DNA of 12,038 nt from a virus (taxonomy: Duplodnaviria > Heunggongvirae > Uroviricota > Caudoviricetes), in IMG/VR virus record IMGVR_UViG_2568526312_000023; one strand, 5' to 3'. The notes under the pieces were generated by a model. The model saw only the letters and a program-made list of their open reading frames with translations, was not told the DNA's origin and made no database searches. The translations under genes were made by a program, and so were the position numbers. Shown in pieces: positions 15-12,038 of this stretch (the first letter of the stretch is position 1; each line of letters opens with the position of its first letter).

Positions 15-1676
15 TCACACCCCGCTAAATTCTTCCAGTTTCTGGCGGTGGCTGTCGCTTATATCAAAAGCAAAATCCTCATGCTCTGCCTGGAATGTAC
101 CAAACGCCATCAGCGCCGCCACGCTCGGGTCTATCTTGTTCGGTGATTTTTTCTTGTTCGGCTTGATATTGGCGTTCGCGTCACTCTGCATCACGACGTT
201 ACTCATCGACCAGGACAACACCGGATCGCCACGATGCACAATCACCCTGCGGTTAACAAAAACTTCGAACGATTTCGCCGCCGGACTGAATCTGAGGTAG
301 GTTTGCGGGAACGGCTCCACCTCAAAACCTGCCCCCTGTAATTGCGTTCTGAGATGCGTGGCGTTCCACGTATCAAAGCCCACCAGCCTGATATTAAATT
401 TCTCCGCGTCCTGCATGATGTCATCTCTGATCCGGTCGTAATCAATGCAGTCGCCAGGTGTTGTGCGTATCCAGCCTGCTTTAGCCCACTGACGATAGAC
501 AGCGCGGTTTTTATTGGCGGGGTTCTGTAGCTGGAACTCCGGCAGATAATGACGGGAAACCAGCATAATGGTTTTACCTACCGGAAAGGCATAGCACACG
601 CTGGAAATATCGCTTGTGGATGATAAATCCAGCCCCGCGTAACACTCCTGGCCGTGTAAATCTTCCTCCGTGAACGTTCCGGCACACTCAGCCCATGCGC
701 CGTTACCCATCCACGGGGTAGTCCCCTGACACCAGATATTAAATCGCTTTGTCATCATCTCCACCCACTGCGACGGAATACCCCGCGCTTTCTGGATGGT
801 TGAGGCCAGTTTTTCACGATCCACGGAAACATCAATATTAGGGTTCGCCTTTATCCACATCGCCGGATCATCAACCTCGTTTTCGTCGTCCAGTTCGTAA
901 ATCAGTACAAAAATTGAATCGTTAACCTCTTCGCCGTCCAGGATCTGGCAGCAATAATCATAGTGCTGCTTACAGGCTGAAACGACGTTGCTGCCTGATG
1001 TGGTAATGGCAAATAACAGCCCTTCGGGACGTGCGCCCATCCCCAGCTCAAGCGCGGAATAAACGCCGTTATCGGGGTGCAAGTGGTATTCGTCCACGAT
1101 GGAAAGGCTGGGGTTTGTTCCCTCGATGGTTGCCGCTTTTGCTGCCAGCGGCTTTAACAGGCTGTTGCTTTTCGGGTGTATCACCTTATGCGCCTGAATA
1201 TTCACCCGCCTGCGTAACGGTCGGGATAAAAGGCACATCTGACGCGCATCATCAAAGACGATCCGCGCCTGGTCACGGCTCACCGCTGCGGTGTAGATAT
1301 CCTGCTGACCGTTCTCCATAATCAGAAACCAGTTAGCCAGAATCGCGGCGGTCGTGGATTTCGCATTTTTGCGCGGCACTTCGATAAAGGCGCTCGTATA
1401 TTTGCGCCGTCCGGTGGCCTTAACCTTAAAGCCGAGGATGCACGCAAAGGCGAACTGCTGCCACGGCTCCAGCTCAATGGGTCTGCCACGCATCGGTCCT
1501 TTTACGTGCGGGCACACCCTGGAAAAGGCAATAAACCGCTCCACAACCTCACGATCGAACGTGTAAAGGGGGCTTTTAAGGTCCGAAAAGTACCGTTTAA
1601 CAGCCTGTTTTAACCGTTTACAGGCCGGAATTTTGCCCGTTTTTACGTCTTCTGCGTACTTATTCCAGGCGGTCAA
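15..1676 (-). CDS. terL: Terminase large subunit (TerL), HK97-like
   Basis: 553-aa ORF. N-terminal region resembles TerL ATPase domains (FIEVPRKNAKST Walker-A-like P-loop). Probable TTG start at 1674-1676 preceded by AGAGGA Shine-Dalgarno, overlapping the terS 3' end by 17 nt. Stop TGA at 15-17. Confidence 0.88.
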   Translation of the reverse strand: MTAWNKYAEDVKTGKIPACKRLKQAVKRYFSDLKSPLYTFDREVVERFIAFSRVCPHVKGPMRGRPIELEPWQQFAFACILGFKVKATGRRKYTSAFIEVPRKNAKSTTAAILANWFLIMENGQQDIYTAAVSRDQARIVFDDARQMCLLSRPLRRRVNIQAHKVIHPKSNSLLKPLAAKAATIEGTNPSLSIVDEYHLHPDNGVYSALELGMGARPEGLLFAITTSGSNVVSACKQHYDYCCQILDGEEVNDSIFVLIYELDDENEVDDPAMWIKANPNIDVSVDREKLASTIQKARGIPSQWVEMMTKRFNIWCQGTTPWMGNGAWAECAGTFTEEDLHGQECYAGLDLSSTSDISSVCYAFPVGKTIMLVSRHYLPEFQLQNPANKNRAVYRQWAKAGWIRTTPGDCIDYDRIRDDIMQDAEKFNIRLVGFDTWNATHLRTQLQGAGFEVEPFPQTYLRFSPAAKSFEVFVNRRVIVHRGDPVLSWSMSNVVMQSDANANIKPNKKKSPNKIDPSVAALMAFGTFQAEHEDFAFDISDSHRQKLEEFSGV

Positions 1677-2016
1677 GCTCGTCCTCTTCTTCTGTTTCCG
1701 GTGGATTTTTACGGCGGCTTATCGGGTCAAAACCGAGCAAGGAGGCCATTTTTATCATCACTCTTTCCGCGTCGGATTTCGCGCTTAATGCGGGGTTTCT
1801 GCTCTCTCCGCCCTGACTGTTAACAATGCTGAACCCGCGCGCCGCAAGGTCTGCGACGGCTTTCCGGTATATCGAGTAATTGACGCAATACAGTTCCAGA
1901 TTACTCCAGTCGGCGGGAGTCAGGTCACCCCGTTCCGCAAGCTGCCGCGATTTTTCCCGCCACTGCTTCACGGCGATATCATCCAGGTAGGCGGGGGCTT
2001 TCGGTGGTCTTGCCAT
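1660..2016 (-). CDS. terS: Terminase small subunit, P27 family
   Basis: 118 aa. The motif LTPADWSNLELYCVNYSIYRKA...GESRNPALSAKSDAERVMIKMASLLGFDP matches the phage P27-type TerS pattern as I recall it. ATG at 2014-2016 with a weak SD. Overlaps the terL start. Confidence 0.8.
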   Translation of the reverse strand: MARPPKAPAYLDDIAVKQWREKSRQLAERGDLTPADWSNLELYCVNYSIYRKAVADLAARGFSIVNSQGGESRNPALSAKSDAERVMIKMASLLGFDPISRRKNPPETEEEDELDRLE

Positions 2017-2139
2017 GCTTATTTTTTCGCCAGATTATTTTTCAAAAAATTCCCGTGCATAAAAATTTGAGGAGGCGTTCGGTTCTGGGCGGGGTCGGGT
2101 TCGTCCTGAAAACTCCCCCCACCCCGTCCGGCTGCCTCA

Positions 2140-2313
2140 TCAGCGATTGCGGAAACATTCCATAACCTCGCGGTCACGGTCGTTTAATCGCGTCGCTGTG
2201 ATGCGTTCTGCGCGTCCTGATGCTTTATCTTTATGCCCTGCTTCCTGTGCCTTCCATGCGTCACGCTGCCTTATAAGTCCACGGATAAGGCGGTTTTGTT
2301 CCCGCTCATTCAT
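2140..2313 (-). CDS. Hypothetical small basic protein (57 aa) in the HNH-terS gap
   Basis: In-frame ATG at 2311-2313 (alternative ATG at 2320-2322) within the 138-aa track ORF. Translation MNEREQNRLIRGLIRQRDAWKAQEAGHKDKASGRAERITATRLNDRDREVMECFRNR is charged and helix-like. Weak RBS. Start overlaps the HNH 3' end. Confidence 0.25.
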   Translation of the reverse strand: MNEREQNRLIRGLIRQRDAWKAQEAGHKDKASGRAERITATRLNDRDREVMECFRNR

Positions 2314-2746
2314 CAGCGCCATACATCCAGTTATTGCGGTTAGCGCCCCGTTCTTCCTCCTCACGGAATCCACCCGCAGCACGCTTGTTTTTTGTGGACG
2401 GATCAAGCCATTTCGTTTTCTGGTTATGACACGCCTGGCACAATGGCTGATGATTCCACTCAGGCCAGAAGAGAACATCATTACCGCCATCGATTGGGAT
2501 AATGTGATCCACCACCACGGCGGGCGTGTATATTCCTTTTTCCAGGCAATGCGCACATAACGGGTTTTTACTCAGATACATGGCGCGGTATTTCTCCCAC
2601 TGCCTCGTATACCCTCGCTCCCTGCTGCTGCCTCTCCGGCTGTCCTGCTGCTGGCGTGCGCTGCGTCTGTGCTCCTCACACTTGCCGGACTTCACGCGCC
2701 TGTTGCAGCCTGGTTCTGTACATCGTCTTAATGGTTGCCACGGCAT
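2306..2746 (-). CDS. HNH endonuclease (packaging-associated)
   Basis: 146 aa. N-terminal Cys cluster (CTEPGCNRRVKSGKCEEH) plus HNH core (GYTRQWEKYRAMYLSKNPLCAHCLEKG...VDHIIP...WNHQPLCQACHN). Sits immediately upstream of terS/terL, as in HK97-like cos packaging systems. ATG at 2744-2746 overlaps the upstream stop (TGATG). Confidence 0.85.
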   Translation of the reverse strand: MPWQPLRRCTEPGCNRRVKSGKCEEHRRSARQQQDSRRGSSRERGYTRQWEKYRAMYLSKNPLCAHCLEKGIYTPAVVVDHIIPIDGGNDVLFWPEWNHQPLCQACHNQKTKWLDPSTKNKRAAGGFREEEERGANRNNWMYGADE

Positions 2747-3039
2747 CAGTACACCCCCACATCACGGTAAGCCGTCCAGAGTGCGCCAATCGTCATGGGT
2801 ACGTGTGTTTTTGCGTTATCCGCGACAATCTGGCGATTTTCATACAGGTGAGCGATAAACATCATGCAGCCAATCTTTATGGCTGGCGTGAACTCCAGCC
2901 CGTCATCAAAGCGCCTGCCTATGTGTATCTGGCACGCCTCAAGCGATGCGGCAATGTATCCGCTGATTAACTGGTCTTCATCGTCGCCATCGATGCGGCA
3001 ATGGAGTTTCACTTCTTCCAGGGTGATAAGTTCTGTCAT
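2746..3039 (-). CDS. Head-tail connector protein, gp6-like
   Basis: 97 aa. N-terminus ITLEEVKLHCRIDGDDEDQLISGYIAASLEACQIHIGRRF resembles the gp6-like head-tail connector family pattern. ATGA overlap with the upstream gene. Confidence 0.72.
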   Translation of the reverse strand: MTELITLEEVKLHCRIDGDDEDQLISGYIAASLEACQIHIGRRFDDGLEFTPAIKIGCMMFIAHLYENRQIVADNAKTHVPMTIGALWTAYRDVGVY

Positions 3040-3374
3040 TTTTCCGCGCCCTCACTACAAAGAATTTCAAGGCGTGTCCTGGCGGCATCTGGCAGCGGTT
3101 GCCCGATGATATTCAGTACACGCCCCGCCAGCGGCCCCGTATTGACCTTTATCCGACTGGTGGCGTTGATGTCCTTCCGGTAGCGTATCCATATCCTTAC
3201 AGTTCCAGTCGCCAGCTCTGCACCTGATGAAATGGCCTCCTTGCTGCTGATCATGTTCACGCTTGCCCAGAGTGTGTGACCGTCCACCCACGTTTCGAGT
3301 ATTTCGCCCGTCATGGCTCTGGTCTGTTTCAGGGTCTGAATCGTTACCCTGTCACGCAGTCGCCCTATGTTCAT
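3036..3374 (-). CDS. Head closure / head-tail joining protein
   Basis: RDRVTIQ...W..LWASV...IWIRYRKDI...RI pattern typical of HK97 gp9-type head-tail joining proteins. Preferred start is ATG at 3372-3374 (ATGA overlap with the portal stop, AGGGAG upstream). The track ORF extends to 3416 with an alternative ATG. Confidence 0.72.
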   Translation of the reverse strand: MNIGRLRDRVTIQTLKQTRAMTGEILETWVDGHTLWASVNMISSKEAISSGAELATGTVRIWIRYRKDINATSRIKVNTGPLAGRVLNIIGQPLPDAARTRLEILCSEGAEK

Positions 3375-4582
3375 TCCGGTTTTTCTCCCTCGCTGATTTT
3401 TACTTCCTGTTTCCATGCCTGGCTGAACTCATCACCACCATCACGCGGTGACAGTCCTTCACGTTCGCGGGCTTCGTTCGGACACATAACGCCGGATTTG
3501 ATGCCGCGCTCATAGGTGGCAAAGCGTTCGCCAGGTGTGGCCCGTAACAGGTCCGCGCTGTCAAACTCCACCTGATACCGGATACCAGGTACAGGCGAGG
3601 CCACCAGCAGGGCGTTTTTTATCTGCTGCTCAAAGTTCGCCAGCCACGGGCGCATCGTCATGGTGAGAAATGCGCGGCTTGCCTCGCTGAAATTGCTGTA
3701 GGTGCTGTTGCTGTATTCCTGCAAAAAAATCGGCGAGACGTTGAACATTCGGGCGATGTCTTCAATGGTGAAGCGACGGGAGGCCAGCCATTCAGCATCC
3801 TGATTACTCATGCCCAGCTGCTGATAGCTCATACCCCCTTCAAGGATGGGCGTTTTTCCGGCGTTTCTGGCCCCTTTGTAGCGTTCCAGTGCGGCTAATG
3901 CCTGTTTGCCCTTCACGCCGTCCAGCCATTCGCCTGACGTGATAACCCCTGCCGCCATCATGCCATCACGCATCACGCTCGCGCCGTGGCGTTGTTGGGC
4001 CAGCCCAAGCCCCAGCGATTCGCGGCAAATGGTTACAGGTGAGCGCCCCATAAAACCGTCATCCGTGGAGTAACGAAGGTGGAGAACCTCCCACGGTAAA
4101 TAGTTGCGGGTGTTTCCGGTGTAAGCGTCAGTGATGCAGTAGCGCCAGTTGTGTTCTCCTGTCTGCTCCACGTTCACCGACTGCGGCGGGTAAGGATGTA
4201 AAGCCGCCGGAAAACCATCACGCCCCCACTGAATCACCGCGTAAGCATTACCGTTTAACAGGCAGTGGCGGATCATCATTCGCTTAAACTGGTAGGGAGT
4301 CTGCCACGCGTTCGGGCGCTCGTTGAGGATGTGATCGACCGGATGAGAATCAAGCCACTCTCGGGCCTCCTTCCCCTTCTCATTGCGTACCAGGTACAGG
4401 TAACACGGCATGGTAGCCACCGCCTCAGAGATGACCGTGACGGCGTTCATGACGGCGGGCAGTGATTCCGCTGTCCCCGATGATACGTACTCACCCGCCC
4501 CCGTGTTCGATGTGCCAGCCAGCGCCATAAACTCATCAAGCGTCATGCTGCGCTGCTCTTTTTTTCTTCTGAAAGGCCACAT
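3371..4582 (-). CDS. Portal protein, HK97 family
   Basis: 403 aa. Contains ESLPAVMNAVTVISEAVATMPCYLY and RRFTIEDIARMFNVSPIFLQ, which I recognise as HK97-type portal signatures. ATG at 4580-4582 preceded by GGGGGTG SD. Confidence 0.88.
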   Translation of the reverse strand: MWPFRRKKEQRSMTLDEFMALAGTSNTGAGEYVSSGTAESLPAVMNAVTVISEAVATMPCYLYLVRNEKGKEAREWLDSHPVDHILNERPNAWQTPYQFKRMMIRHCLLNGNAYAVIQWGRDGFPAALHPYPPQSVNVEQTGEHNWRYCITDAYTGNTRNYLPWEVLHLRYSTDDGFMGRSPVTICRESLGLGLAQQRHGASVMRDGMMAAGVITSGEWLDGVKGKQALAALERYKGARNAGKTPILEGGMSYQQLGMSNQDAEWLASRRFTIEDIARMFNVSPIFLQEYSNSTYSNFSEASRAFLTMTMRPWLANFEQQIKNALLVASPVPGIRYQVEFDSADLLRATPGERFATYERGIKSGVMCPNEAREREGLSPRDGGDEFSQAWKQEVKISEGEKPE

Positions 4583-4583
4583 A

Positions 4584-5141
4584 TCACACCCCCGCTAAAT
4601 CCGCCCACCAGCGGCGATTATCCGCACGAGGCATTTTTTCAGGGTGCTGCTCATACAGGGAACGGCGGGCCAGCTCCACGCCGGAATCAGGGTAAGCCGG
4701 TACGGATGTCACGGTAATTTCGTACAGTTCCGCTATCAGTACAGTACGCACACATGGATCGACTGTCGTATCCCATACATCCTTACGGGAACGAAAGCCA
4801 AAGCTCATGCCCGAGATGTCACCACGTTTAACCAGTTCGATAACGTCCCGCCCTGTGCTGGTATCCGGTGGGATCAGTTCAAAACGTAACCCTGTGTCAT
4901 CCTCTTCCAGTCTCAGCGTACCGGAACGGGTGCGCCCCAGTAACATGCTGTGGTCATGCTCATACAGGCCGCGAACGTCATTACCCACCGCAAGCCATTC
5001 AGTAAACGCCCCCCGCTGGAATTTTTCGTAAAATTCGCCCCATAGCAGTTCTGAAAGGTTATCCCAGCGAACAACGTAGCCCGTAAGCGTGTTGCTGCCG
5101 CTGGTGGTGATTTCCGATGACCGGATTTCCATACTCATCAT
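4584..5141 (-). CDS. Prohead maturation protease, HK97 family
   Basis: 185 aa. GYVVRWDNLSE...GAFTEWL...GLYEHDHSMLLGRT...DTSTGRDVIELVKRGDISGMSFGF matches the HK97 prohead protease family pattern. ATG at 5139-5141 with AGGTGA SD. Confidence 0.88.
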   Translation of the reverse strand: MMSMEIRSSEITTSGSNTLTGYVVRWDNLSELLWGEFYEKFQRGAFTEWLAVGNDVRGLYEHDHSMLLGRTRSGTLRLEEDDTGLRFELIPPDTSTGRDVIELVKRGDISGMSFGFRSRKDVWDTTVDPCVRTVLIAELYEITVTSVPAYPDSGVELARRSLYEQHPEKMPRADNRRWWADLAGV

Positions 5142-5164
5142 AATTTTTTCACCTGTAAAACAGA

Positions 5165-5186
5165 GAAGGGGCTTTTTAGCCCCTTC
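5165..5186 (-). terminator. GC-rich hairpin between capsid and protease genes (possible partial terminator/attenuator)
   Basis: Perfect 8-bp stem GAAGGGGC/GCCCCTTC with a 6-nt loop, 9 nt after the capsid stop. On the minus strand it is followed by CUCUGUUUUA, a U-containing but imperfect tract. Confidence 0.35.
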
Positions 5187-5195
5187 GGTGTGCTG

Positions 5196-6353
5196 TTAAT
5201 CGTCGTCCTGCGGCAGTTCCAGAATCTTTATAGCGTTCGAATCCACCACGCCACCGCCTAAATATTTCTGCGTGAAAATTTTGATAAAGCCCGGCTCTGT
5301 GAGGTTGTCCGGTCTGGTGCGAACACCTGTTTCGTGATCAACAATGTAGTAACCGCGTTTGAAGTCACCCAGGGCAATAACGTTATCAGGCATAAACTCC
5401 AGATATTCGACCGGAAGGCCCAGCAACGTATCAGGATCACCCGCCTGTAAACGGTCGCGCCAGATGTAATCACCGTTCGCGTTCTTCACCTTCTGGAGTT
5501 TTGCCGCCGTCGTGGAGTTAACCACCCAGACCGCGTTTTTGCGGTATTTTTTACGTAATGCAAATTTCAGGTCGATCAGCGGGTCCGCAGATGTCCACGC
5601 CAGAGATTCGGAAGGTTTAATTACCTGCAACGTACCAAAATCACGCTCTTTGTCGTTCTTCTCTGCACGGGGTACGGATAAAAAACCTTTTGCTTTTTTG
5701 TCACCGTCGCCCACAACCAGATCGCTTTCTTCGGTTTCCGTGAAGGTGTCGCCAATCTCGCCCGTCAGCCATGAAAGGATGTCCACATCGGAAAAATCCA
5801 CGATTTCCTGCGTGGTGCGCGGGTACGCATAGACCGGATACAGCTTAATGCTCACCTCGTTAATCTGCGGGGTGCTGGTCTGTTCGCGTGCCTTACCCTC
5901 TTCACCGTGGTTAACGGTCGCACCGCCAGCGGAAACAAGCTGCTTAAACTCGTTGCTGCTGATTTTCTTCACGGTACAGATGCGGCGCATGGTGGATTCA
6001 TCCGTCAGCATTCGCATGATTTCGGTGTTCAGTTCGGGGATAACGGTATAACCACCATCAGCGGGAACGCCTGTACTCAATGCGCGGGTTTCACCTGTCA
6101 GAATGTAGTGACGTAGTTCGGCGGGGTCAGTGGTCTGGCTGTTTTTGCCTGGTTTACTGCGCTCTTCGTCAGCAACGGCCTCAAGGCGGGAGATGTCTTT
6201 ATCGAGGGATTCAGCTTTAGCGCGTAATTCGTCAAATTTTGCGCCCTCAGCATCGTTAAGGCTGCGGTTTTCTTTTTCCGCGTTCTCCAGCATGTCGCGC
6301 ATCTGATTTTTAATGGCGGTTTTCTGCTGGCGTAATTCGATTATTCTCGGCAT
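5196..6353 (-). CDS. Major capsid protein, HK97 fold, with N-terminal coiled-coil delta (scaffold) domain
   Basis: About 385 aa from ATG at 6351-6353 (MPRIIELRQQK...). The first ~70 residues are a charged coiled-coil typical of a delta domain; the rest has HK97-like capsid character. The track ORF extends to a GTG at 6401, but that start would place a terminator-like hairpin inside the coding sequence. Confidence 0.88.
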   Translation of the reverse strand: MPRIIELRQQKTAIKNQMRDMLENAEKENRSLNDAEGAKFDELRAKAESLDKDISRLEAVADEERSKPGKNSQTTDPAELRHYILTGETRALSTGVPADGGYTVIPELNTEIMRMLTDESTMRRICTVKKISSNEFKQLVSAGGATVNHGEEGKAREQTSTPQINEVSIKLYPVYAYPRTTQEIVDFSDVDILSWLTGEIGDTFTETEESDLVVGDGDKKAKGFLSVPRAEKNDKERDFGTLQVIKPSESLAWTSADPLIDLKFALRKKYRKNAVWVVNSTTAAKLQKVKNANGDYIWRDRLQAGDPDTLLGLPVEYLEFMPDNVIALGDFKRGYYIVDHETGVRTRPDNLTEPGFIKIFTQKYLGGGVVDSNAIKILELPQDDD

Positions 6354-6390
6354 AAAAAAAGTCCTGAAGTTAAGTAAGGAACTCCAGGAC
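6354..6390 (-). terminator. Intrinsic-terminator-like hairpin abutting the capsid start codon
   Basis: Minus-strand RNA reads GUCCUGGAGUU-CCUUACUU-AACUUCAGGAC followed by UUUUUUU then AUG. The 11-bp stem has one G-U pair and an 8-nt loop. The capsid SD (AGGAC) lies in the 3' arm of the stem. Confidence 0.5.
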
Positions 6391-6442
6391 GCGGCAAACA
6401 CTCAACCGTTTTTCATAAGGAAATCAGCAATCGCACCGATCG

Positions 6443-6492
6443 TTTTCCCGCCTGGTAATGAATATTGGCGAGCACATTAACAGGCGGGAAAG
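6443..6492 (-). promoter_or_regulatory. Long inverted repeat in the late leader (RNA stem-loop or dimeric-regulator site)
   Basis: Perfect 11-bp inverted repeat TTTCCCGCCTG (6444-6454) / CAGGCGGGAAA (6481-6491), extended by TAATG (6456-6460) / CATTA (6475-6479) after a single mismatch. Central loop about 14 nt. Confidence 0.4.
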
Positions 6493-6610
6493 TGGCCCCA
6501 GCGTCCTGGCACCACGGGCGAGAATAATCATGATTCAGTTCGGGTAAAATATGCCGATCCGGTCAGCGAACAACGTGGAACAACCACGAACAAATAATTT
6601 ACAAAACATG

Positions 6611-6633
6611 ACAAAAAGCCGGATTGCTCCGGC
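6611..6633 (-). terminator. Putative rho-independent terminator after the PerC-like gene
   Basis: Minus-strand GCCGGA-GCAA-UCCGGC hairpin (6-bp GC-rich stem) followed by UUUUUGU, beginning 8 nt after the TAA stop at 6641-6643. Confidence 0.45.
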
Positions 6634-6640
6634 TGTGTGA

Positions 6641-6913
6641 TTATCTGTCCTGGTAATTTCGCCATATTTCATCACCAGCACCATCCATACCCATTTCGGC
6701 ATAAGTGCGATCGACCGCCTTTTTCAGGTCTCCGTAATTATCCGGCGGCTCCGGTGGCCTCTGTGCCTTCCTGGAACATTCCAGCCGTCGCATCGTAACC
6801 TGATGCCGTTCCTTGTCTGTCTCCACCAGTTGCATGACTTCACCCCATCGCGCCGACGCTCTCCGGTAAAAGCCTTTCGCCTCCAGTTCTTCCGCTATGC
6901 GGTCATGTACCAT
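6641..6913 (-). CDS. PerC-family-like small transcriptional activator (putative late-gene activator)
   Basis: 90 aa from ATG at 6911-6913 (GGGGTGGGGA SD). N-terminal DRIAEELEAKGFYRRASARWGEVMQ resembles the PerC/Pch family motif (..LE.KG.WRRAA.RW..) as I recall it. Located directly upstream of the head operon leader. Confidence 0.55.
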   Translation of the reverse strand: MVHDRIAEELEAKGFYRRASARWGEVMQLVETDKERHQVTMRRLECSRKAQRPPEPPDNYGDLKKAVDRTYAEMGMDGAGDEIWRNYQDR

Positions 6914-6925
6914 CGTCCCCACCCC

Positions 6926-7336
6926 TCAGAACGGAATATCATCACCGTAAGGGTCATCGCCTCCCGCTGGTGGCTGATTACCCTGTGTGCCTGTGGTCTT
7001 GCGTCGGCTCCCACCAGGACGTGCCGCACGGGCACTGATTACGCTGTCTGCAATAACCTGATAACCCTGCCGCGTTTCCCCGTTCTGTCCGGTCCACTGG
7101 CTGACCTGCATCGTGCCGGATACGCTGGCAACGTCGCCTTTTTGATGTTTAGCCAGGAAGTCGGCCTGCTTACCAAATGCGATGACCGATAGCCATAACG
7201 TCGCCTGTCCATCCTGTGCCTGGCTGCATGGCAGCGATACCGCCATACGCGCCAGCGTCATCGGTGTACCCTTGCTGGTCTGTTTTACCTGCGGGTCGTC
7301 CACCAGCCGCCCGTAAGCTGCAATTTGTGCTGTCAT
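6926..7336 (-). CDS. ssb: Single-stranded DNA-binding protein (SSB-like)
   Basis: 136 aa. Gly/Pro-rich linker and an acidic C-terminal tip ending DDPYGDDIPF, matching the canonical SSB C-terminal D-D-D-I-P-F tail. N-terminal region compatible with an OB fold. ATG at 7334-7336 with GAGGTG SD. Confidence 0.75.
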   Translation of the reverse strand: MTAQIAAYGRLVDDPQVKQTSKGTPMTLARMAVSLPCSQAQDGQATLWLSVIAFGKQADFLAKHQKGDVASVSGTMQVSQWTGQNGETRQGYQVIADSVISARAARPGGSRRKTTGTQGNQPPAGGDDPYGDDIPF

Positions 7337-7345
7337 ATTGCCACC

Positions 7346-7651
7346 TCAGTGAAGCGATCCGGCGTTATTCTTTTTCATCTCTTCCATCATTTTTTCAGTG
7401 AGCATTACGCACTGAAAACCCATGTTTTTGATGTCTACGGGTTTCATGCCTTTGTCAGTGGATATCACAGGCAGAATATCCTGATACACATCGCGGTCAG
7501 GGTAACTAAGCACACAAAGCGCCCATGATGCCACGGGTGAGGATCCTTCGTCTGTTTCAACCCACCAGCCTGGTGTAGCTGCGCTTATTTGCTGAATCGT
7601 GATCCGTCCGTTGTGCTTGTAAAGTTTTTCACCAAATTTTGGTTCGCTCAT
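7346..7651 (-). CDS. Hypothetical protein (101 aa)
   Basis: ORF with ATG at 7649-7651 forming an ATGA overlap with the upstream gene stop, in operon context. No motif recognised. Confidence 0.5.
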   Translation of the reverse strand: MSEPKFGEKLYKHNGRITIQQISAATPGWWVETDEGSSPVASWALCVLSYPDRDVYQDILPVISTDKGMKPVDIKNMGFQCVMLTEKMMEEMKKNNAGSLH

Positions 7652-7899
7652 GATTTCAACTCTCCGGTTTTAACGTTGATGGTTGTTACCTGTTCCGCTT
7701 CGGCAATCTCCCGTTCTGTCAACGTGGCAAAGTTTGCCGCTGCTGTGGTCATGAATGCGCTTATCAGGTCGGGATGTTCCTTCGCGTATCCTTCCCCTAC
7801 GTGTCGGTCTATCGTTCTGATTGCCACCTTTAAGGCCAGCTCTGTTATATCTAACGCTTTATATTTCGGCTCTGTTCTGTCTCTGCGTGTTCTGGTCAT
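7648..7899 (-). CDS. Hypothetical protein (83 aa)
   Basis: Preferred ATG at 7897-7899 with a strong GAGGTG SD 6 nt upstream. The track ORF extends to 7932 into the AT-rich/iteron region. No motif recognised. Confidence 0.55.
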   Translation of the reverse strand: MTRTRRDRTEPKYKALDITELALKVAIRTIDRHVGEGYAKEHPDLISAFMTTAAANFATLTEREIAEAEQVTTINVKTGELKS

Positions 7900-7932
7900 T
7901 TGCCACCTCAATTTATATATATATAGAAACAT

Positions 7933-8250
7933 GTGCGGGTTATGCGGGTTATTGGGTTATCTTAGCGTGCTAACCATTTTTTACCCTTTTATATCAGCAT
8001 GTTGCAAAACACCCTGTTTATTATTTGCTCACCACGTAACCCGCAAAACGCTCAAAATAACCCGCAAACGGGGTTTTTTCTGCGGGTTACGCATGACTGT
8101 CCGGTGTTACTTCAGTTATTCGCCTGCGGGTTATAATCGTGCTTTTGCGGGTTATAAATGCCCTTTTGCGGGTTACGTGCGGGTTATTGATTTCCTTTAT
8201 ATTCATGCACTTAATACACTTATACACAGGATAACCCGCATAACCCGCAA
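7933..8250. repeat. Iteron array, putative replication origin
   Basis: At least 11 copies of the 9-10 bp unit TGCGGGTTA(T/C) in both orientations. Forward copies at 7934, 7943, 8081, 8125, 8146, 8167, 8178; reverse copies (ATAACCCGCA) at 8037, 8057, 8231, 8241. Some pairs are spaced about 10 or 20-21 bp. They flank AT-rich tracts (7960-8030, 8190-8230) immediately downstream of the primase gene. Confidence 0.7.
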
Positions 8251-8271
8251 TTTTTTTCCTCACACAGGGGA

Positions 8272-10404
8272 TTAATCTTCATCATCAGGCTGGAACATCA
8301 GCACGTAAAAAACATGCTGCTTACCCCCAATCTTGCCCAGCGCCTTTTTTTTGTATCGGCGATCGCTTCCCTTCTCCAGCATTCCGGCAGCATCCAGGGC
8401 ACGCGCAAAATGCGCCGGATTAAATCCCTTCGCTATCTCACTCTCAAACACGTGCGGGAACGTGTAATAGCGCATCTCGTCATCTTCGTTGCGAATGCTC
8501 CCTTTTCTGTATCCGGCAAGCTCTTTAATCGGTAAATCACGCTCATCTGTATTGGGGTACGGAAGGTAGCGGCTAAACCCAAACGACGACAAAAACGCCT
8601 CAGCCTGTTCAACCATCTGTTTAAATTCCCTGTTACCCGTGCCGAACTCCTTCACCCAGGCATTAAAGTTATGCTGTATCGCGTCGCGGCATTCCTGCAC
8701 GACCCAGCCAGTTACATGACCGGAAAGCACAAGCGCGGCCTCCAGTATGGCGAAACGTTCACCCACGCGGTGGACCTGCTCGCCGTAACTCTCCGGTATC
8801 AGGTTGCGCCACCGTTCGCGGCATTCCCTTACCGTGTCCTTTGCCTCCTGCTGGTGGCCTGCCAGCCATTTAACCCACTCACGACCCGCCGCCCCGTGAT
8901 TTGCTGTCCAGGCATCCTTTAACGCGTCAGCATGTTCCTTACCGTTGCTGTATTCGTGAAATTTCGTGGCTTTTTCCATCGGAACGTTAAGCAGTCGGAC
9001 AAGCTGCCCCGCCTTAACTTTTATCCCCTCACTTTTGAGGAATGTCTCAACGTCCATTTCTCCGGTGCTGATTGCCACCGTTCGCCAGTGTTTGATCTCC
9101 CTGTTGCCGCCATCCTTCGCCCCCTGCAATTTCCCTGAACCGTTAAACAGCGTATAAGCAGACGTTGACACTTCCCGCGCATTTCCGGCCTGGCCTATCT
9201 CATCCAGTGGTAAAAGCCCGTCATTATGGGCCTCGGCCTCATTGGCAATACCTAACGCCGTGCCGTACCAGGTCAGCCGCTGCGCGTCCGGCTCTCCCCA
9301 TAAACTTGATGCGATGTTCTGCGTGGTGGTCTTACCTGCCGATGACTGTTCGAAAAGATGCACCCCGAAGCCGTCAGCACCCACAAGGCCAATTAAAGGC
9401 GCTGCCAGTGACGTTGCCACACCCAGTATCATTGAGGCATTACCGCCAGCCAGCCGCGCCACGCTGTCGCGCCAGCCATCCGCCGTGCCCGCCACGGAAT
9501 AACCGTTAATCGCGGCGCTTTTTCCGGTAAACAGGATCGGTTTTTCAGATTCACCAATGATCGAACCGTCCGGCATGATGTACGCGCCAAAATGCCAGCC
9601 CGTTGTTGTGCTTAACTGCCATTCCTCATGGCTTCCGCTTAACTGCATCCAGTCCGCCAGGATTGCCCTGTATTTGCCGTTGGTTGTCACGTTCAGCCCG
9701 TGATCTTTAAGTAACCGCCAGCCGTCACGGTCGCCGATACCACCACACGGGATCGCCATTGTGATGACTTCATGGTTTGCGGTTTTTTTCCAGCGCATCA
9801 CGCGGTAATGCTCTTTACCGATCGTCCCCGTTCCCAGTAGTTCAAGCGGAGAACATAACCACGTCTCAGGCCGGATAATTTCGCCTGACTGCTTATCCAC
9901 TTTGGGCGTTACCCAGAAAACACCATCGGCGCGACTTTCAACGCGTGGCTTTAATTCGTCATCGCTATGGCTTCCGGTATCTTTTTTCTTTACCGGAAAC
10001 TCAATAACCAGACCATCAGAAAGATTCTGCCGCTCACGGGCCAGATATTCGCGCCAGTTCTCCACCTTCTGACCGTGCATACCCTCAGGATAAAAATTTG
10101 CATCCTGTACACCAGCCGCCGCCAGCTTTTGACCAATCGCCTTGATCATTACTGGTGCAAGATGTCCGGCCCTGAATATGCGCACGGATTTTCTGCCTTC
10201 CGGCACAATTTGCAGCTTATCCAGTTCTGATAACTGCTGCTCCCCAAGCCACACAGGAGGCACATTATCGCCGGATGCGGGGCCGTCCTGCTCCTGCCAC
10301 TGTTTTGCATGTGCCCACGCATCACTACCCGCGAAAATAATCACCTCTGTGTCTTTGTGTTTTATTCCGCGTGGCTGTTTTTTTACGTTCGGTGCCAGTT
10401 TCAT
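8272..10404 (-). CDS. Primase/helicase-type replication initiator (satellite/P4-like pri-rep)
   Basis: 710 aa. Central P-loop-like motif GVHLFEQSSAGKTTTQ. Large size and position directly upstream of the iteron origin. ATG at 10402-10404 with ATGA overlap to the upstream ORF. Confidence 0.75.
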   Translation of the reverse strand: MKLAPNVKKQPRGIKHKDTEVIIFAGSDAWAHAKQWQEQDGPASGDNVPPVWLGEQQLSELDKLQIVPEGRKSVRIFRAGHLAPVMIKAIGQKLAAAGVQDANFYPEGMHGQKVENWREYLARERQNLSDGLVIEFPVKKKDTGSHSDDELKPRVESRADGVFWVTPKVDKQSGEIIRPETWLCSPLELLGTGTIGKEHYRVMRWKKTANHEVITMAIPCGGIGDRDGWRLLKDHGLNVTTNGKYRAILADWMQLSGSHEEWQLSTTTGWHFGAYIMPDGSIIGESEKPILFTGKSAAINGYSVAGTADGWRDSVARLAGGNASMILGVATSLAAPLIGLVGADGFGVHLFEQSSAGKTTTQNIASSLWGEPDAQRLTWYGTALGIANEAEAHNDGLLPLDEIGQAGNAREVSTSAYTLFNGSGKLQGAKDGGNREIKHWRTVAISTGEMDVETFLKSEGIKVKAGQLVRLLNVPMEKATKFHEYSNGKEHADALKDAWTANHGAAGREWVKWLAGHQQEAKDTVRECRERWRNLIPESYGEQVHRVGERFAILEAALVLSGHVTGWVVQECRDAIQHNFNAWVKEFGTGNREFKQMVEQAEAFLSSFGFSRYLPYPNTDERDLPIKELAGYRKGSIRNEDDEMRYYTFPHVFESEIAKGFNPAHFARALDAAGMLEKGSDRRYKKKALGKIGGKQHVFYVLMFQPDDED

Positions 10405-10700
10405 TTTTTACCCCTGAATACGTTAAGCATCTTTTTTATTTCCTGAATATTGGCGCGTGCTTTCTCCCTGCTGGTTGGTTTACTGCGGGGCGCTGCCTGT
10501 ACCAGAGAAAAATCACGCCGGAACTGATAAACAGGCATCACGCAATCATATTCGTAGCCTTCACGATGGTAGGTTACGCGCCGTTCCTCCACGCCCTTAA
10601 TCATTACCGTGCCGCCGTACTTATCGCGGTAAATATCCCCGCACATGAATTTAGTGCGAGTTTTGCCGCTGGCAGTTAAGCCAGAATATTTAAGTTTCAT
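10401..10700 (-). CDS. Hypothetical protein (99 aa), translationally coupled to the primase gene
   Basis: ATG at 10698-10700 with GGAG upstream. Stop overlaps the primase ATG (ATGA). Basic C-terminus. No motif recognised. Confidence 0.55.
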   Translation of the reverse strand: MKLKYSGLTASGKTRTKFMCGDIYRDKYGGTVMIKGVEERRVTYHREGYEYDCVMPVYQFRRDFSLVQAAPRSKPTSREKARANIQEIKKMLNVFRGKK

Positions 10701-10705
10701 TATTT

Positions 10706-10966
10706 TTATTCTCCGATAGCGTGACCTGATAAGCCGTTAATCTTCTCTGATGTGCTCTCTATTTTGCTGGTTGAACTATCCAGTAATTCAGAAACGGCTA
10801 ATATTAATCTTGCGGTTGATTCATCGCGTTCATTATTCGCCAGCGACTGAAGCCACATGTTCATTACTTCGTTCGCTGCGTTGTTTAAAGATATTGCGCT
10901 GTTGGCAAGGCTTCTTAATTCACTGGTCGCCAGTTTGTTATTGTTCATAGCGTTTAAATCTCTCAT
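10706..10966 (-). CDS. Hypothetical Asn/Ser-rich small protein
   Basis: ORF in a visibly AT-rich patch. Starts at ATG 10964-10966 or ATG 10946-10948 (the latter overlaps the upstream stop). Composition is atypical for the rest of the element. Confidence 0.4.
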   Translation of the reverse strand: MRDLNAMNNNKLATSELRSLANSAISLNNAANEVMNMWLQSLANNERDESTARLILAVSELLDSSTSKIESTSEKINGLSGHAIGE

Positions 10967-11129
10967 CAATTAACCACAGCGCAACACTTCCAGAAAGTTT
11001 TGCCAGAAGGCCAGCTAATGCGGATATATCACCATCATTTAATTTATCAGGGTATACCTCAAGAAGGCGGCAAATAATTTCTGTCTGGTGCGCACGTTCA
11101 GCGGCTTCGTGTAATGTAATTTCCTTCAT
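10938..11129 (-). CDS. Hypothetical protein (63 aa)
   Basis: ATG at 11127-11129 overlapping the upstream stop by 1 nt (TAATG), indicating translational coupling. No motif recognised. Confidence 0.45.
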   Translation of the reverse strand: MKEITLHEAAERAHQTEIICRLLEVYPDKLNDGDISALAGLLAKLSGSVALWLIDERFKRYEQ

Positions 11130-11314
11130 TAATGCACCTCTTTTAATTCATACACTGCTGAAATAATGACTTGTGATAAGCCATATTCTGATGATTCGCT
11201 TCTCACCGCAGCAATAGCCGTCTGAACATTAACAGCCTTCACATTCTGAGCGATACCAATTGTGTGGCCTAGTGGGTTAACAGCGCTGGCAAATACACGG
11301 AAGGTTTTAAGCAT
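11129..11314 (-). CDS. Hypothetical protein (61 aa)
   Basis: ATG at 11312-11314 embedded in the upstream gene's 3' end (ATGCTTAA overlap). No motif recognised. Confidence 0.45.
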   Translation of the reverse strand: MLKTFRVFASAVNPLGHTIGIAQNVKAVNVQTAIAAVRSESSEYGLSQVIISAVYELKEVH

Positions 11315-11507
11315 GGCACACCCCCTGACGAATACGAGCGGCGAATACCATCACGCAGCCAGCCGGAGATTGCTGGCGCGCTTCCTGTTCGCTGGTGGCC
11401 TCGATGGTAATCACGCGCGGCTGTGCCGTGCTCAGGGCGATAAAACGCCAGATGTATTTATTCAGGTTGTGCGAGTCCCGCCCTTGCGGGTGTGTGGTAT
11501 GATTTCT
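11307..11507 (-). CDS. Icd-like protein (P4 Icd-type cell-division-inhibitor family)
   Basis: 66 aa from ATG at 11505-11507 (GAGGT SD). YIWRFIALSTAQPRVITIEATSEQEARQQSPAGCVMVFAARI matches the Icd-like pattern (FIW.F.A...P....I.A.SE.EAR.....FAARxP) as I recall it. First gene after the operator-bearing promoter. Confidence 0.55.
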   Translation of the reverse strand, partial: RNHTTHPQGRDSHNLNKYIWRFIALSTAQPRVITIEATSEQEARQQSPAGCVMVFAARIRQGVCHA

Positions 11508-11607
11508 CATAGCTACCTCGATACTTTCGCTATCGTTGGTTGTTAGACGCCCTGCATGTGTTGCGAGCACTGTAGGGCGTTGCTTAATTTGAGTGACAAA
11601 ACTCAAA

Positions 11608-11690
11608 CTGTGCGCACAGATTAAAATCATGTGTGCGCACATGTCAATACTTAACATCTCATTTTTTTTGCTGTATTGTGTGCGCCCATA
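11608..11690. promoter_or_regulatory. Divergent promoter region with three TGTGCGCACA-type operator palindromes
   Basis: Perfect 10-bp palindrome TGTGCGCACA at 11609-11618 and 11632-11641, and a degenerate copy TGTGCGCCCA at 11679-11688. Minus-strand promoter candidate: -35 TTGACA (11642-11647), 16-nt spacer containing the second palindrome, -10 TTTAAT (11620-11625) adjoining the first. The third copy lies 28 nt upstream of the ribbon-helix-helix gene start. Confidence 0.55.
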
Positions 11691-11715
11691 AAGTCCATTT
11701 AAGTGAGGTGCATCA

Positions 11716-11913
11716 ATGTCTAGCGGTAACACAAACAACAAATCAGCAAAGAAAAATATTCGATTCCCACATGAGCTTATAGATGGGATTGATGCCAGCG
11801 TTGAACAAGAAAAATTAACTAATCCTAGTGCTAATTTTTCCGCATGGGTCTTAGATGCCTGTGGACGCAAATTAAAATATGAACAGCGCCGCAAGGCCAA
11901 AGAGCAGGAATAG
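11716..11913 (+). CDS. Arc/Mnt-like ribbon-helix-helix DNA-binding protein (putative repressor)
   Basis: 65 aa. Strong SD GAGGTG 5 nt upstream of the ATG. KNIRFPHELIDGIDASVEQEKL...NFSAWVLDA fits the Arc motif N-[LI]-R-[WF]-P-x-E-[LV]. Divergent from the early operon. Confidence 0.7.
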   Translation: MSSGNTNNKSAKKNIRFPHELIDGIDASVEQEKLTNPSANFSAWVLDACGRKLKYEQRRKAKEQE

Positions 11914-12001
11914 TCCACCAGCAAGCCAGCACACTGAGCACATTGCCCACCAGACAGCAAATCGCTATGATGTTCTGGCTTATGTTTAGTGTTTTCCCAT
12001 T

Positions 12002-12030
12002 GGCGACCGCCACAGGTCGCCTTTGTTTTA
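12002..12030 (+). terminator. Putative rho-independent terminator downstream of the ribbon-helix-helix gene
   Basis: GGCGACC-GCCACA-GGTCGCC hairpin (7-bp stem) followed by TTTGTTTTA on the plus strand. Confidence 0.45.
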
Positions 12031-12038
12031 TGTGTCAT

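Follow-up and report, generated by a model that had tools for sequence, protein, structure and literature searches.

A mosaic Escherichia coli cf-PICI closely related to the prototype EcCIEDL933, located between rcnR and the thiM riboswitch

The closest described systems to the locus examined here are satellites whose architecture was published in 2022-2023, where the term cf-PICI (capsid-forming phage-inducible chromosomal island) was given (10.1101/2022.09.08.507074; 10.1101/2025.02.11.637232). Experiments with the prototype, EcCIEDL933, have demonstrated induction by a helper phage, formation of its own small capsids and exclusive packaging of its own DNA, with only the tails of the helper being needed; an attachment site never used by prophages is one of the criteria set for the group (10.1101/2022.09.08.507074; 10.1101/2025.02.11.637232). 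The cf-PICIs are among the most abundant phage satellites, and their spread across species is attributed to tail-less heads that accept the tails of different phages. Since RefSeq names their genes merely as generic phage proteins, recognising these elements matters for annotation.

The DNA analysed here (the window) is a single stretch of 12,038 bp, which an earlier note had read as a head and packaging module without tail genes, carried by an element that builds its own small capsid and borrows helper-phage tails. We conclude that the window is almost certainly part of a 15.7-kb E. coli cf-PICI, a mosaic close relative of EcCIEDL933 inserted between rcnR and the thiM riboswitch. The satellite has been described before and this copy of it is an ordinary one; its gene content, gene order and size agree with the published description of cf-PICIs. 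At the sequence level, the capsid-forming satellite reading is supported by the gene content, the presence of att, integrase and alpA in near-identical contigs, the lack of tail and lysis genes and the similarity to the prototype.

The genes of the packaging module are all full length and intact, lie on the minus strand and gave strong Pfam and PHROG matches. The operon (window 15-6353) runs in the order major capsid protein, S78 prohead protease, portal, head-closure protein, gp6-like connector, HNH endonuclease, a conserved 60-aa ORF (orf60), terS and terL. The eight named genes make nine when orf60 is counted, which is the number given for the module in 10.1101/2025.02.11.637232. The complete set of head genes claimed in the earlier note, from capsid to gp6-like connector, is present and intact, and the HMM searches it had proposed returned strong Pfam and PHROG family matches for each head protein. 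Its statement that HNH, terS and terL follow the head genes directly is correct as to the three genes, but orf60 intervenes between HNH and terS. The span of 15-6401 that it gave is likewise right in placement, but 6401 is an upstream GTG of the longest ORF and the capsid ATG lies at 6353, as annotated in relatives.

The 385-aa major capsid protein (5196-6353, minus strand) has the HK97 fold (PF05065, E 1.7e-61), with an N-terminal delta (scaffold) domain and cleavage near residue 93. It is identical at 381 of 385 positions to PDB 9GYI, named by its authors as the cryo-EM T=4 capsid of EcCIEDL933, and the capsid landmarks are all kept (STGVPAD at residue 93, D257, K290, D295, E319, R345 and the 227-248 loop). 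Also on the minus strand are the 185-aa HK97-family prohead serine protease S78 (4584-5141; PF04586, E 4.4e-46; phrog_80) and the 403-aa portal protein (3371-4582; PF04860, E 2.5e-90; phrog_12, E 4e-116). The 112-aa head-closure or stopper protein (3036-3374, minus strand) is SPP1 gp16-like (PF05521, E 5.6e-23; TIGR01563; phrog_25) and is likely the docking surface for helper tails; across 50,697 phage records, no protein is more than 54% identical to it. It is followed by the 97-aa gp6-like head-tail connector or adaptor (2746-3039, minus strand; PF05135, E 2.1e-12; TIGR01560, E 8e-27; phrog_40) and by the 146-aa HNH endonuclease, a terminase accessory factor (2306-2746, minus strand; PF01844, E 9.4e-8; phrog_144, E 7.6e-43). 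Next comes orf60 (2140-2322, minus strand; phrog_3173, E 5e-34), which is called in nearly all relatives. The 118-aa small terminase TerS is of the P27 or Terminase_4 type (1660-2016, minus strand; PF05119, E 1.3e-23; phrog_83), and the 553-aa large terminase TerL (15-1676, minus strand; PF03354 and PF20441; phrog_9, E 1.7e-179) is listed as an exact protein in 280 blocks of the assembly collection.

The replication module that the earlier note had described, composed of a primase/helicase, an iteron origin and an Icd-like protein, was also recovered. The 710-aa DUF927 primase/helicase initiator, pri-rep (8272-10404, minus strand; PF06048, E 1.4e-48; phrog_1139, E 8e-191), has the origin (7927-8256) directly downstream of its gene. 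The origin contains iterons in both orientations and an AT-rich tract at 7908-7932; TGCGGGTTA occurs there in 11 exact copies, where 0.10 would be expected (0 of 200 shuffles). Other minus-strand genes of the region encode a 90-aa PerC-family transcriptional activator (6641-6913; PF06069, E 9.4e-44), a 136-aa single-stranded DNA-binding protein, SSB (6926-7336; PF00436, E 4e-17; phrog_44), and two small proteins of unknown function (7346-7899), of 101 aa (7346-7651; phrog_27268) and 83 aa (7648-7899; phrog_1231). Beyond the initiator gene, 10401-11314 (minus strand) holds a DUF4222 gene (10401-10700; PF13973, E 5e-23) and three small conserved ORFs of 80, 63 and 61 aa, which match phrog_5796, phrog_1478 and phrog_3672, all of unknown function. 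Among the small and accessory ORFs, PADLOC returned no defence-system match except a marginal one to the HNH protein.

At the right end of the window, a 243-aa ORF (11307-12038, minus strand) is Icd-like in its C-terminal ~90 residues, with NF033153 matching at residues 195-238 (E 2.9e-18) and phrog_6196 covering residues 152-242. The Icd-like genes annotated in relatives encode 65-67 aa, and a divergent 65-aa DUF3950 ORF lies antisense (11716-11913, plus strand; PF13132, 28.3 bits against a cut-off of 25) and is called likewise in loci L005 and L006. The 243-aa ORF was therefore rejected as a full-length gene, and the real Icd-like gene is probably just its 3' part, at about 11307-11510. Islands that carry different cargo also have this 243-aa ORF and the same DUF927 primase.

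The window covers 12,038 bp of the ~15.7-kb unit, and the rest was located in related contigs. The contig of locus L017 matches window positions 1307-12038 at 99.99% identity (1 mismatch in 10,732 nt) and continues past the right end into alpA, a 257-aa ORF, a tyrosine integrase gene, an att repeat and host rcnR. All three features that the earlier note had proposed to look for by extending the contig (integrase, alpA and att) were found on this side. AlpA, the regulator expected in Gram-negative PICIs (74 aa; PF05930, E 3.4e-16), lies 10 bp past the window, and about 100 bp separate the integrase (406 aa; PF00589 and PF13356) from the 70-bp att repeat. The left junction was inferred from 98%-identical elements at the same site with the same att sequence, in which terL is followed by a 93-aa ORF (orf93), 0.8 kb of non-coding DNA, a second att copy and host thiM. 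A perfect 70-bp direct repeat brackets a unit of 15,656 bp in L001, L009, L010, L012 and L013, a length within the ~10-18 kb of cf-PICIs; of these, L010 is 98% identical and occupies the same site, between rcnR and the thiM TPP riboswitch. Related islands occupy several different chromosomal sites with identical internal boundaries, and related DNA is found in 1925 of 5426 complete E. coli genomes.

The absence of tail genes reported in the earlier note extends beyond the window. Pfam and PHROG family searches matched no window ORF to a tail or lysis family, and no such genes were found between the att repeats of L001 and L009-L013, in about 25 related loci or in relatives from three other genera; the 98%-identical relatives have no tail genes beyond terL. 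Shigella, Citrobacter, Erwinia and Gilliamella also hold tail-less loci with the same gene order.

In HNH-dependent HK97-like packaging systems, cos sits at the position equivalent to the 123-bp gap between orf60 and terS (2017-2139, minus strand), which is the candidate cos region here and holds a G-rich and then a C-rich tract. With 13.8% variable sites, the gap does not stand out from its flanks in conservation, and because it is as variable as the adjoining genes, the position of cos remains inferred. Packaged-genome ends were also sought in IMG/VR contigs, but nearly all matches were predicted proviruses trimmed out of isolate genomes, and their ends are arbitrary. Between PerC and the capsid gene, the leader or promoter region of the packaging operon (6354-6640, minus strand) is predicted to form structured RNA elements (fold z = -3.99): a hairpin resembling a terminator at 6634-6617, 3' of PerC; a 17-bp stem at 6491-6444; and a hairpin at 6390-6361 that is followed by U7 and abuts the capsid AUG. 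The position of this last stem-loop is kept across genera, and it has the U7 run and holds the only AGGA. Rfam gave no match within the window (E up to 0.1), and the sole match across the whole element in L010 was the host TPP riboswitch outside attR.

Compared with EcCIEDL933, as carried by O157:H7, the window is alike in gene content and order from DUF4222 through terL. Protein identity is 100% for TerS, 99.9% for pri-rep, 99.3% for the portal, 99.0% for the major capsid protein and 98.6% for TerL; it is 97.9% for the connector, 95.7% for the protease and 94.6% for the head-closure protein, and falls to 91.7% for orf60, 89.9% for PerC and 87.7% for HNH, the packaging protein that diverges most. 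The two elements are of the same size class (15.7 against 15.4 kb), share the same origin type and both lack tail and lysis genes. They differ in integrase and att site (rcnR/thiM here, phoQ/roxA in O157:H7), in the extra 101-aa ORF of the window element (7346-7651), which the O157:H7 copy lacks, and downstream of alpA, where the window has the 243-aa ORF with DUF3950, its Icd part being only 43% similar to EcCIEDL933. Mosaic recombination is all that sets the two copies apart. The window copy would share the induction, small capsids, exclusive self-packaging and helper-tail use of the prototype, as supported only by 88-100% protein identity and the kept capsid landmark residues.

By homology to EcCIEDL933, a helper siphophage of the HK106/HK446 type would lead to alpA expression, after which the island would be excised by its tyrosine integrase and replicated from the iteron origin by its DUF927 primase/helicase and SSB. 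The packaging operon would be expressed. The island capsid protein, its delta domain cut by the S78 protease, would form small T=4 procapsids (~47 nm) together with the portal, and the HNH-TerS-TerL complex of the island would cut concatemers at cos, probably in the orf60-terS gap, with one 15.7-kb unit packaged per head. The gp6-like adaptor and the head-closure protein would then seal the portal vertex, and the tail-less heads would not be infectious until preassembled tails from a co-resident phage had been attached.

The head and packaging proteins all belong to families of HK97-like phages, and decayed copies of such islands exist, with a frameshifted capsid gene and terL in L026 and a portal-terL deletion in Rosenbergiella L095. 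The window might on this basis be what is left of a defective HK97-like prophage after deletion of its tail, lysis and lysogeny genes, with a head and terminase block that has ceased to work as a unit. We consider this extremely improbable, given a constant 15.7-kb unit flanked by exact 70-bp att repeats, the same internal boundaries at several chromosomal sites, the intact ORFs and a gene order (capsid-protease-portal-closure-adaptor-HNH-terS-terL) that reverses the phage order terS-terL-portal-protease-capsid. Decayed pseudogenes, which the earlier note had named as a result that would count against its reading, were not found; the head proteins share 95-100% identity with their counterparts in EcCIEDL933, which has been characterised by experiment, and identical proteins occur in hundreds to thousands of assemblies. 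The element also carries PICI-type int, alpA and pri-rep genes, and host genes follow terL and orf93 in the relatives. No close relative exists among deposited phages, none of which has related DNA above 78% identity over 16% of the window. The 99%-identical prototype is functional by experiment.

The element is a mosaic: its right 8 kb match L001-type islands exactly, the block from the connector to terL shows 5-8% divergence, and for HNH the identity to either compared relative is no more than 87-88%. A cf-PICI by sequence could thus be functionally stranded, persisting only vertically, if its parts were mismatched (for example HNH/cos against terS/terL, or the connectors against the available tails) or if its host lacked an inducing phage or tail donor; in EDL933, the 17 resident prophages neither induce the prototype nor give it tails (10.1101/2022.09.08.507074; 10.1101/2025.02.11.637232). 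The collection, however, lists this exact HNH variant in 7,192 blocks and the exact connector in 9,147, and in every case the surrounding operon is the same and intact, which argues that the combination is common and under selection, and we regard a stranded copy as very improbable.

No new principle comes from this copy, which is a further mosaic member of the group; at most it could serve studies of tail or cos specificity, and of the swapping of integrase and att, as a natural variant. Given the divergence of HNH and the head-closure protein from the prototype, helper or tail specificity could differ. That these changes shift cos or tail-donor specificity, and that the capsid-start stem-loop gates the operon through antitermination or translational control, is a speculative proposal that we consider unlikely.

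Several known systems share parts of this organisation. The second-best PDB matches of the capsid protein are RcGTA proteins, and a GTA-like element was rejected on the presence of an integrase, a replication module and a terminase with terS and HNH, and on the absence of tail genes. Satellite P4 also integrates, encodes a primase/helicase initiator and an Icd-like protein, and yields small capsids. In P4, Sid remodels the P2 capsid protein and the cos site is that of the helper; P4 itself encodes no capsid, portal or terminase, unlike the window element. Family searches of the window found no homologues of Sid, Psu or Delta, and a P4-like satellite was rejected on this and on the element's own capsid and terminase. 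Siphoviruses of the HK97/HK106 type resemble the window in their HK97-fold major capsid protein with a cleaved delta domain, S78 protease, portal, gp6-/gp7-type connectors and HNH-TerS-TerL packaging machine (HNH-dependent cos packaging). Identity to these phages is low, however, and the window element has the reversed gene order, no tail, lysis or immunity genes and a genome one third the size; the prototype capsid is T=4 where theirs is T=7 (10.1101/2022.09.08.507074; 10.1101/2025.02.11.637232). The classical PICIs EcCICFT073 and EcCIED1a have the same int-alpA-replication backbone as the window element, and a helper phage likewise induces them through alpA. As far as their published description goes, classical PICIs have one or two genes for capsid redirection or packaging, Rpp being an example, and rely on the capsid proteins and terminase of the helper, whereas the window element encodes a complete capsid and terminase set of its own.

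The minus strand carries all long open reading frames (ORFs) of the window, and transcription runs from 12038 to 1 with the head and packaging genes filling the second half. Family matches were obtained for a major capsid protein (5196-6353; PF05065, E 1.7e-61), an S78 prohead protease (4584-5141), a portal (3371-4582; PF04860, E 2.5e-90), an SPP1-gp16-type head-closure protein (3036-3374; PF05521, TIGR01563), a gp6-like connector (2746-3039; PF05135, TIGR01560), an HNH endonuclease (2306-2746), the P27-type small terminase terS (1660-2016) and the large terminase terL (15-1676), all on the minus strand. The earlier note had listed and placed these genes correctly, except that the capsid start is the ATG at 6353 rather than the upstream GTG at 6401, and it had missed a conserved 60-aa ORF (orf60; 2140-2322, minus strand), which is small and brings the genes of the module to nine. 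A putative cos site was placed in the 123-bp gap between orf60 and terS because cos occupies this position in HNH-dependent systems; the gap does not stand out in the conservation analysis.

The leader of this operon (6354-6640, minus strand) has strong RNA secondary structure (fold z = -3.99). On the same strand, a terminator-like hairpin (6634-6617) follows the PerC gene, a 17-bp stem spans 6491-6444, and a hairpin followed by U7 (6390-6361) abuts the capsid AUG and holds the leader's only AGGA. E. coli and Shigella copies keep a stem-loop at this position immediately before the capsid AUG, and one of different sequence precedes the AUG in the relatives from Citrobacter, Erwinia and Rosenbergiella; the element may act in antitermination, in translation or in mRNA stability. 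The gap from capsid to protease gene holds a second terminator-like hairpin (5165-5186, minus strand; 9-bp stem with 6 G-C pairs and a T-rich tail), which may be an attenuator holding capsid mRNA above that of the downstream genes.

Upstream, a P4/PICI-style replication module was found as proposed, consisting of a 710-aa DUF927 primase/helicase (pri-rep; 8272-10404), an iteron origin, and an Icd-like domain at the 3' end of an ORF terminating at 11307. All 11 copies of TGCGGGTTA, in both orientations, fall inside 7934-8249 (0.10 expected; 0 of 200 shuffles), directly downstream of the initiator gene and adjoining an AT-rich tract. An SSB (6926-7336) and a PerC-family activator (6641-6913) were identified by family match, both on the minus strand like pri-rep, and a DUF4222 protein is also encoded in this half. 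Neither tRNA genes nor Rfam matches were found in the window. Just the last ~90 residues of the 243-aa ORF at 11307-12038 (minus strand) match Icd-like and phrog_6196 models, and Icd-like genes annotated in relatives encode 65-67 aa; the ORF has probably been over-extended by gene callers. Since a 65-aa DUF3950 ORF (11716-11913, plus strand) lies antisense within its 5' part, the two genes would form a divergent pair just downstream of alpA.

The window's DNA is from Escherichia coli. Of 5426 complete E. coli genomes, 1925 carry related sequence, almost always in the chromosome, and 106 cover at least 80% of the window; among 50,697 deposited phage genomes, the nearest reached 78% identity across 16% of it. 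A contig from GCA_025632125.1 matches 1307-12038 at all but one of 10,732 bases and extends past the right end into a 74-aa AlpA (PF05930), a 257-aa ORF, a 406-aa tyrosine integrase, a 70-bp sequence and the host rcnR gene, supplying the integrase, alpA and att sequence sought by extension. In five relatives ~98% identical to the window (L001, L009, L010, L012 and L013), the 70-bp sequence is a perfect direct repeat, with one copy adjoining int and the other ~0.8 kb past the 93-aa ORF (orf93) that follows terL, ~40 bp upstream of the host thiM TPP riboswitch. One repeat-to-repeat unit measures 15,656 bp and contains no tail, baseplate, tape-measure, holin or endolysin genes. The claim that no tail genes lie just beyond the head module thus held in these five relatives, and in ~25 further loci with an identical terL, primase, connector or HNH protein, which lack tail and lysis genes and sit at three further places in the chromosome: at phoQ/roxA in O157:H7, and close to mdtJI and to pntB. 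In L010, the orf93-attR interval (20688-21479, outside the window) is ~0.8 kb of non-coding DNA at the terL end of the island. It holds a 54-bp unit in three tandem copies and one dispersed copy, each with a CTAACCCATTGATT box and a short hairpin, and two copies of a 24-nt repeat (GATAACGC..TTGCGCTGGCTG); no Rfam family matches, and the DNA could serve as integrase arm sites or as packaging signals.

Taken together, the gene content indicates that the element is almost certainly a capsid-forming phage-inducible chromosomal island (cf-PICI), nearly identical to the prototype EcCIEDL933. Gene content, gene order and size agree with the published definition of a cf-PICI, and the satellite reading of the earlier note is supported by the island's own head set, the lack of tail genes, and PICI-type int, alpA and att in the near-identical contig. 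The capsid protein is identical at 381 of 385 residues to PDB 9GYI, which its authors describe as the EcCIEDL933 capsid model, and this links the window directly to the prototype; the four differences are exactly those between the window and the O157:H7 chromosomal copy. The window's protein also retains features that mutagenesis or structure has shown to be important in EcCIEDL933, namely the SxGxxAD maturation motif (residue 93), the "connector loop" (227-248), D257, K290, D295, E319 and R345. Identity to the O157:H7 copy is 100% for terS, 99.9% for pri-rep, 99.3% for the portal, 98.6% for terL, 97.9% for the connector, 95.7% for the protease, 94.6% for head closure and 87.7% for HNH.

A defective HK97-like prophage was excluded, as a constant att-bounded unit occurs at several sites, the gene order is reversed, the ORFs are intact with evident selection (the head genes are not decayed), the backbone is that of a PICI, and there are no close phage relatives. 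A GTA-like element was likewise excluded, as the element has an integrase, replication genes and terS/HNH and lacks tail genes. The possibility that this copy is a cf-PICI left stranded at present, with neither helper nor compatible tail donor, has a parallel in the prototype, which in its native host is likewise without either; we consider it very improbable.

For a functional cf-PICI, the DNA provides a self-contained head and packaging operon and a replication module with origin, with int, alpA and att in the near-identical contig. EcCIEDL933 is induced through alpA by helper phages HK106 and HK446, replicates, and forms T=4 capsids of ~47.5 nm from its own proteins, in which island DNA alone is packaged (10.1101/2022.09.08.507074; 10.1101/2025.02.11.637232). 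Its transfer is abolished by any packaging-gene mutation and by helper tail mutants but not by helper capsid mutants; heads without tails build up, tails of other phages can complete them, and the adaptor and connector proteins determine tail compatibility (10.1101/2022.09.08.507074; 10.1101/2025.02.11.637232). By homology, a helper would induce the window's element through alpA, leading to island replication; its own T=4 capsids would package island DNA alone and receive helper tails, with the adaptor and connector proteins deciding which tails fit.

Relatives in Citrobacter, Erwinia, Gilliamella and Rosenbergiella keep the operon order with proteins that are 52-82% identical; among them, head closure is the most variable component and terL is followed by host or cargo genes, not tail genes. 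In Erwinia psidii (L097/L083, 12992-13009), no head-closure gene is detectable in the portal-connector gap. One Rosenbergiella locus (L095, 5923-6926) is a decayed copy, as a deletion makes the portal sequence run, after residue 251, into the final 83 terL codons. Citrobacter amalonaticus (L096, 16418-17941) carries three cargo ORFs between terL and host mug/rpoD (162, 181 and 161 aa, the 181-aa product having an HTH_3 domain), in the variable region where immune systems are expected (10.1101/2025.02.11.637232). Islands at cspD/clpS (L014-L016, L018-L021) share an identical DUF927 primase or 243-aa ORF and carry quite different morphogenesis cargo, one type with a single 629-aa ClpP-protease/capsid fusion (PF00574 and Phage_capsid_4) and another with a Terminase_2 terS and a 307-aa capsid-like protein; both types lack portal and terL genes, which illustrates module shuffling among PICI types.

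Sequence comparison shows the element itself to be a mosaic produced by recombination. Across ~3500-11500 it hardly differs from L001-type islands, but from the connector through terL it is 5-8% divergent; near-identity to the O157:H7 copy is confined to the replication module and terS. The prototype has a different integrase and att site, and the region downstream of alpA differs, with an extra 101-aa ORF in the window. Exchange of modules, with adaptor and connector genes among those swapped, has already been described in the cf-PICI family (10.1101/2025.02.11.637232). The family to which the element belongs was described in 2022-2023; its structural characterisation followed in 2025.
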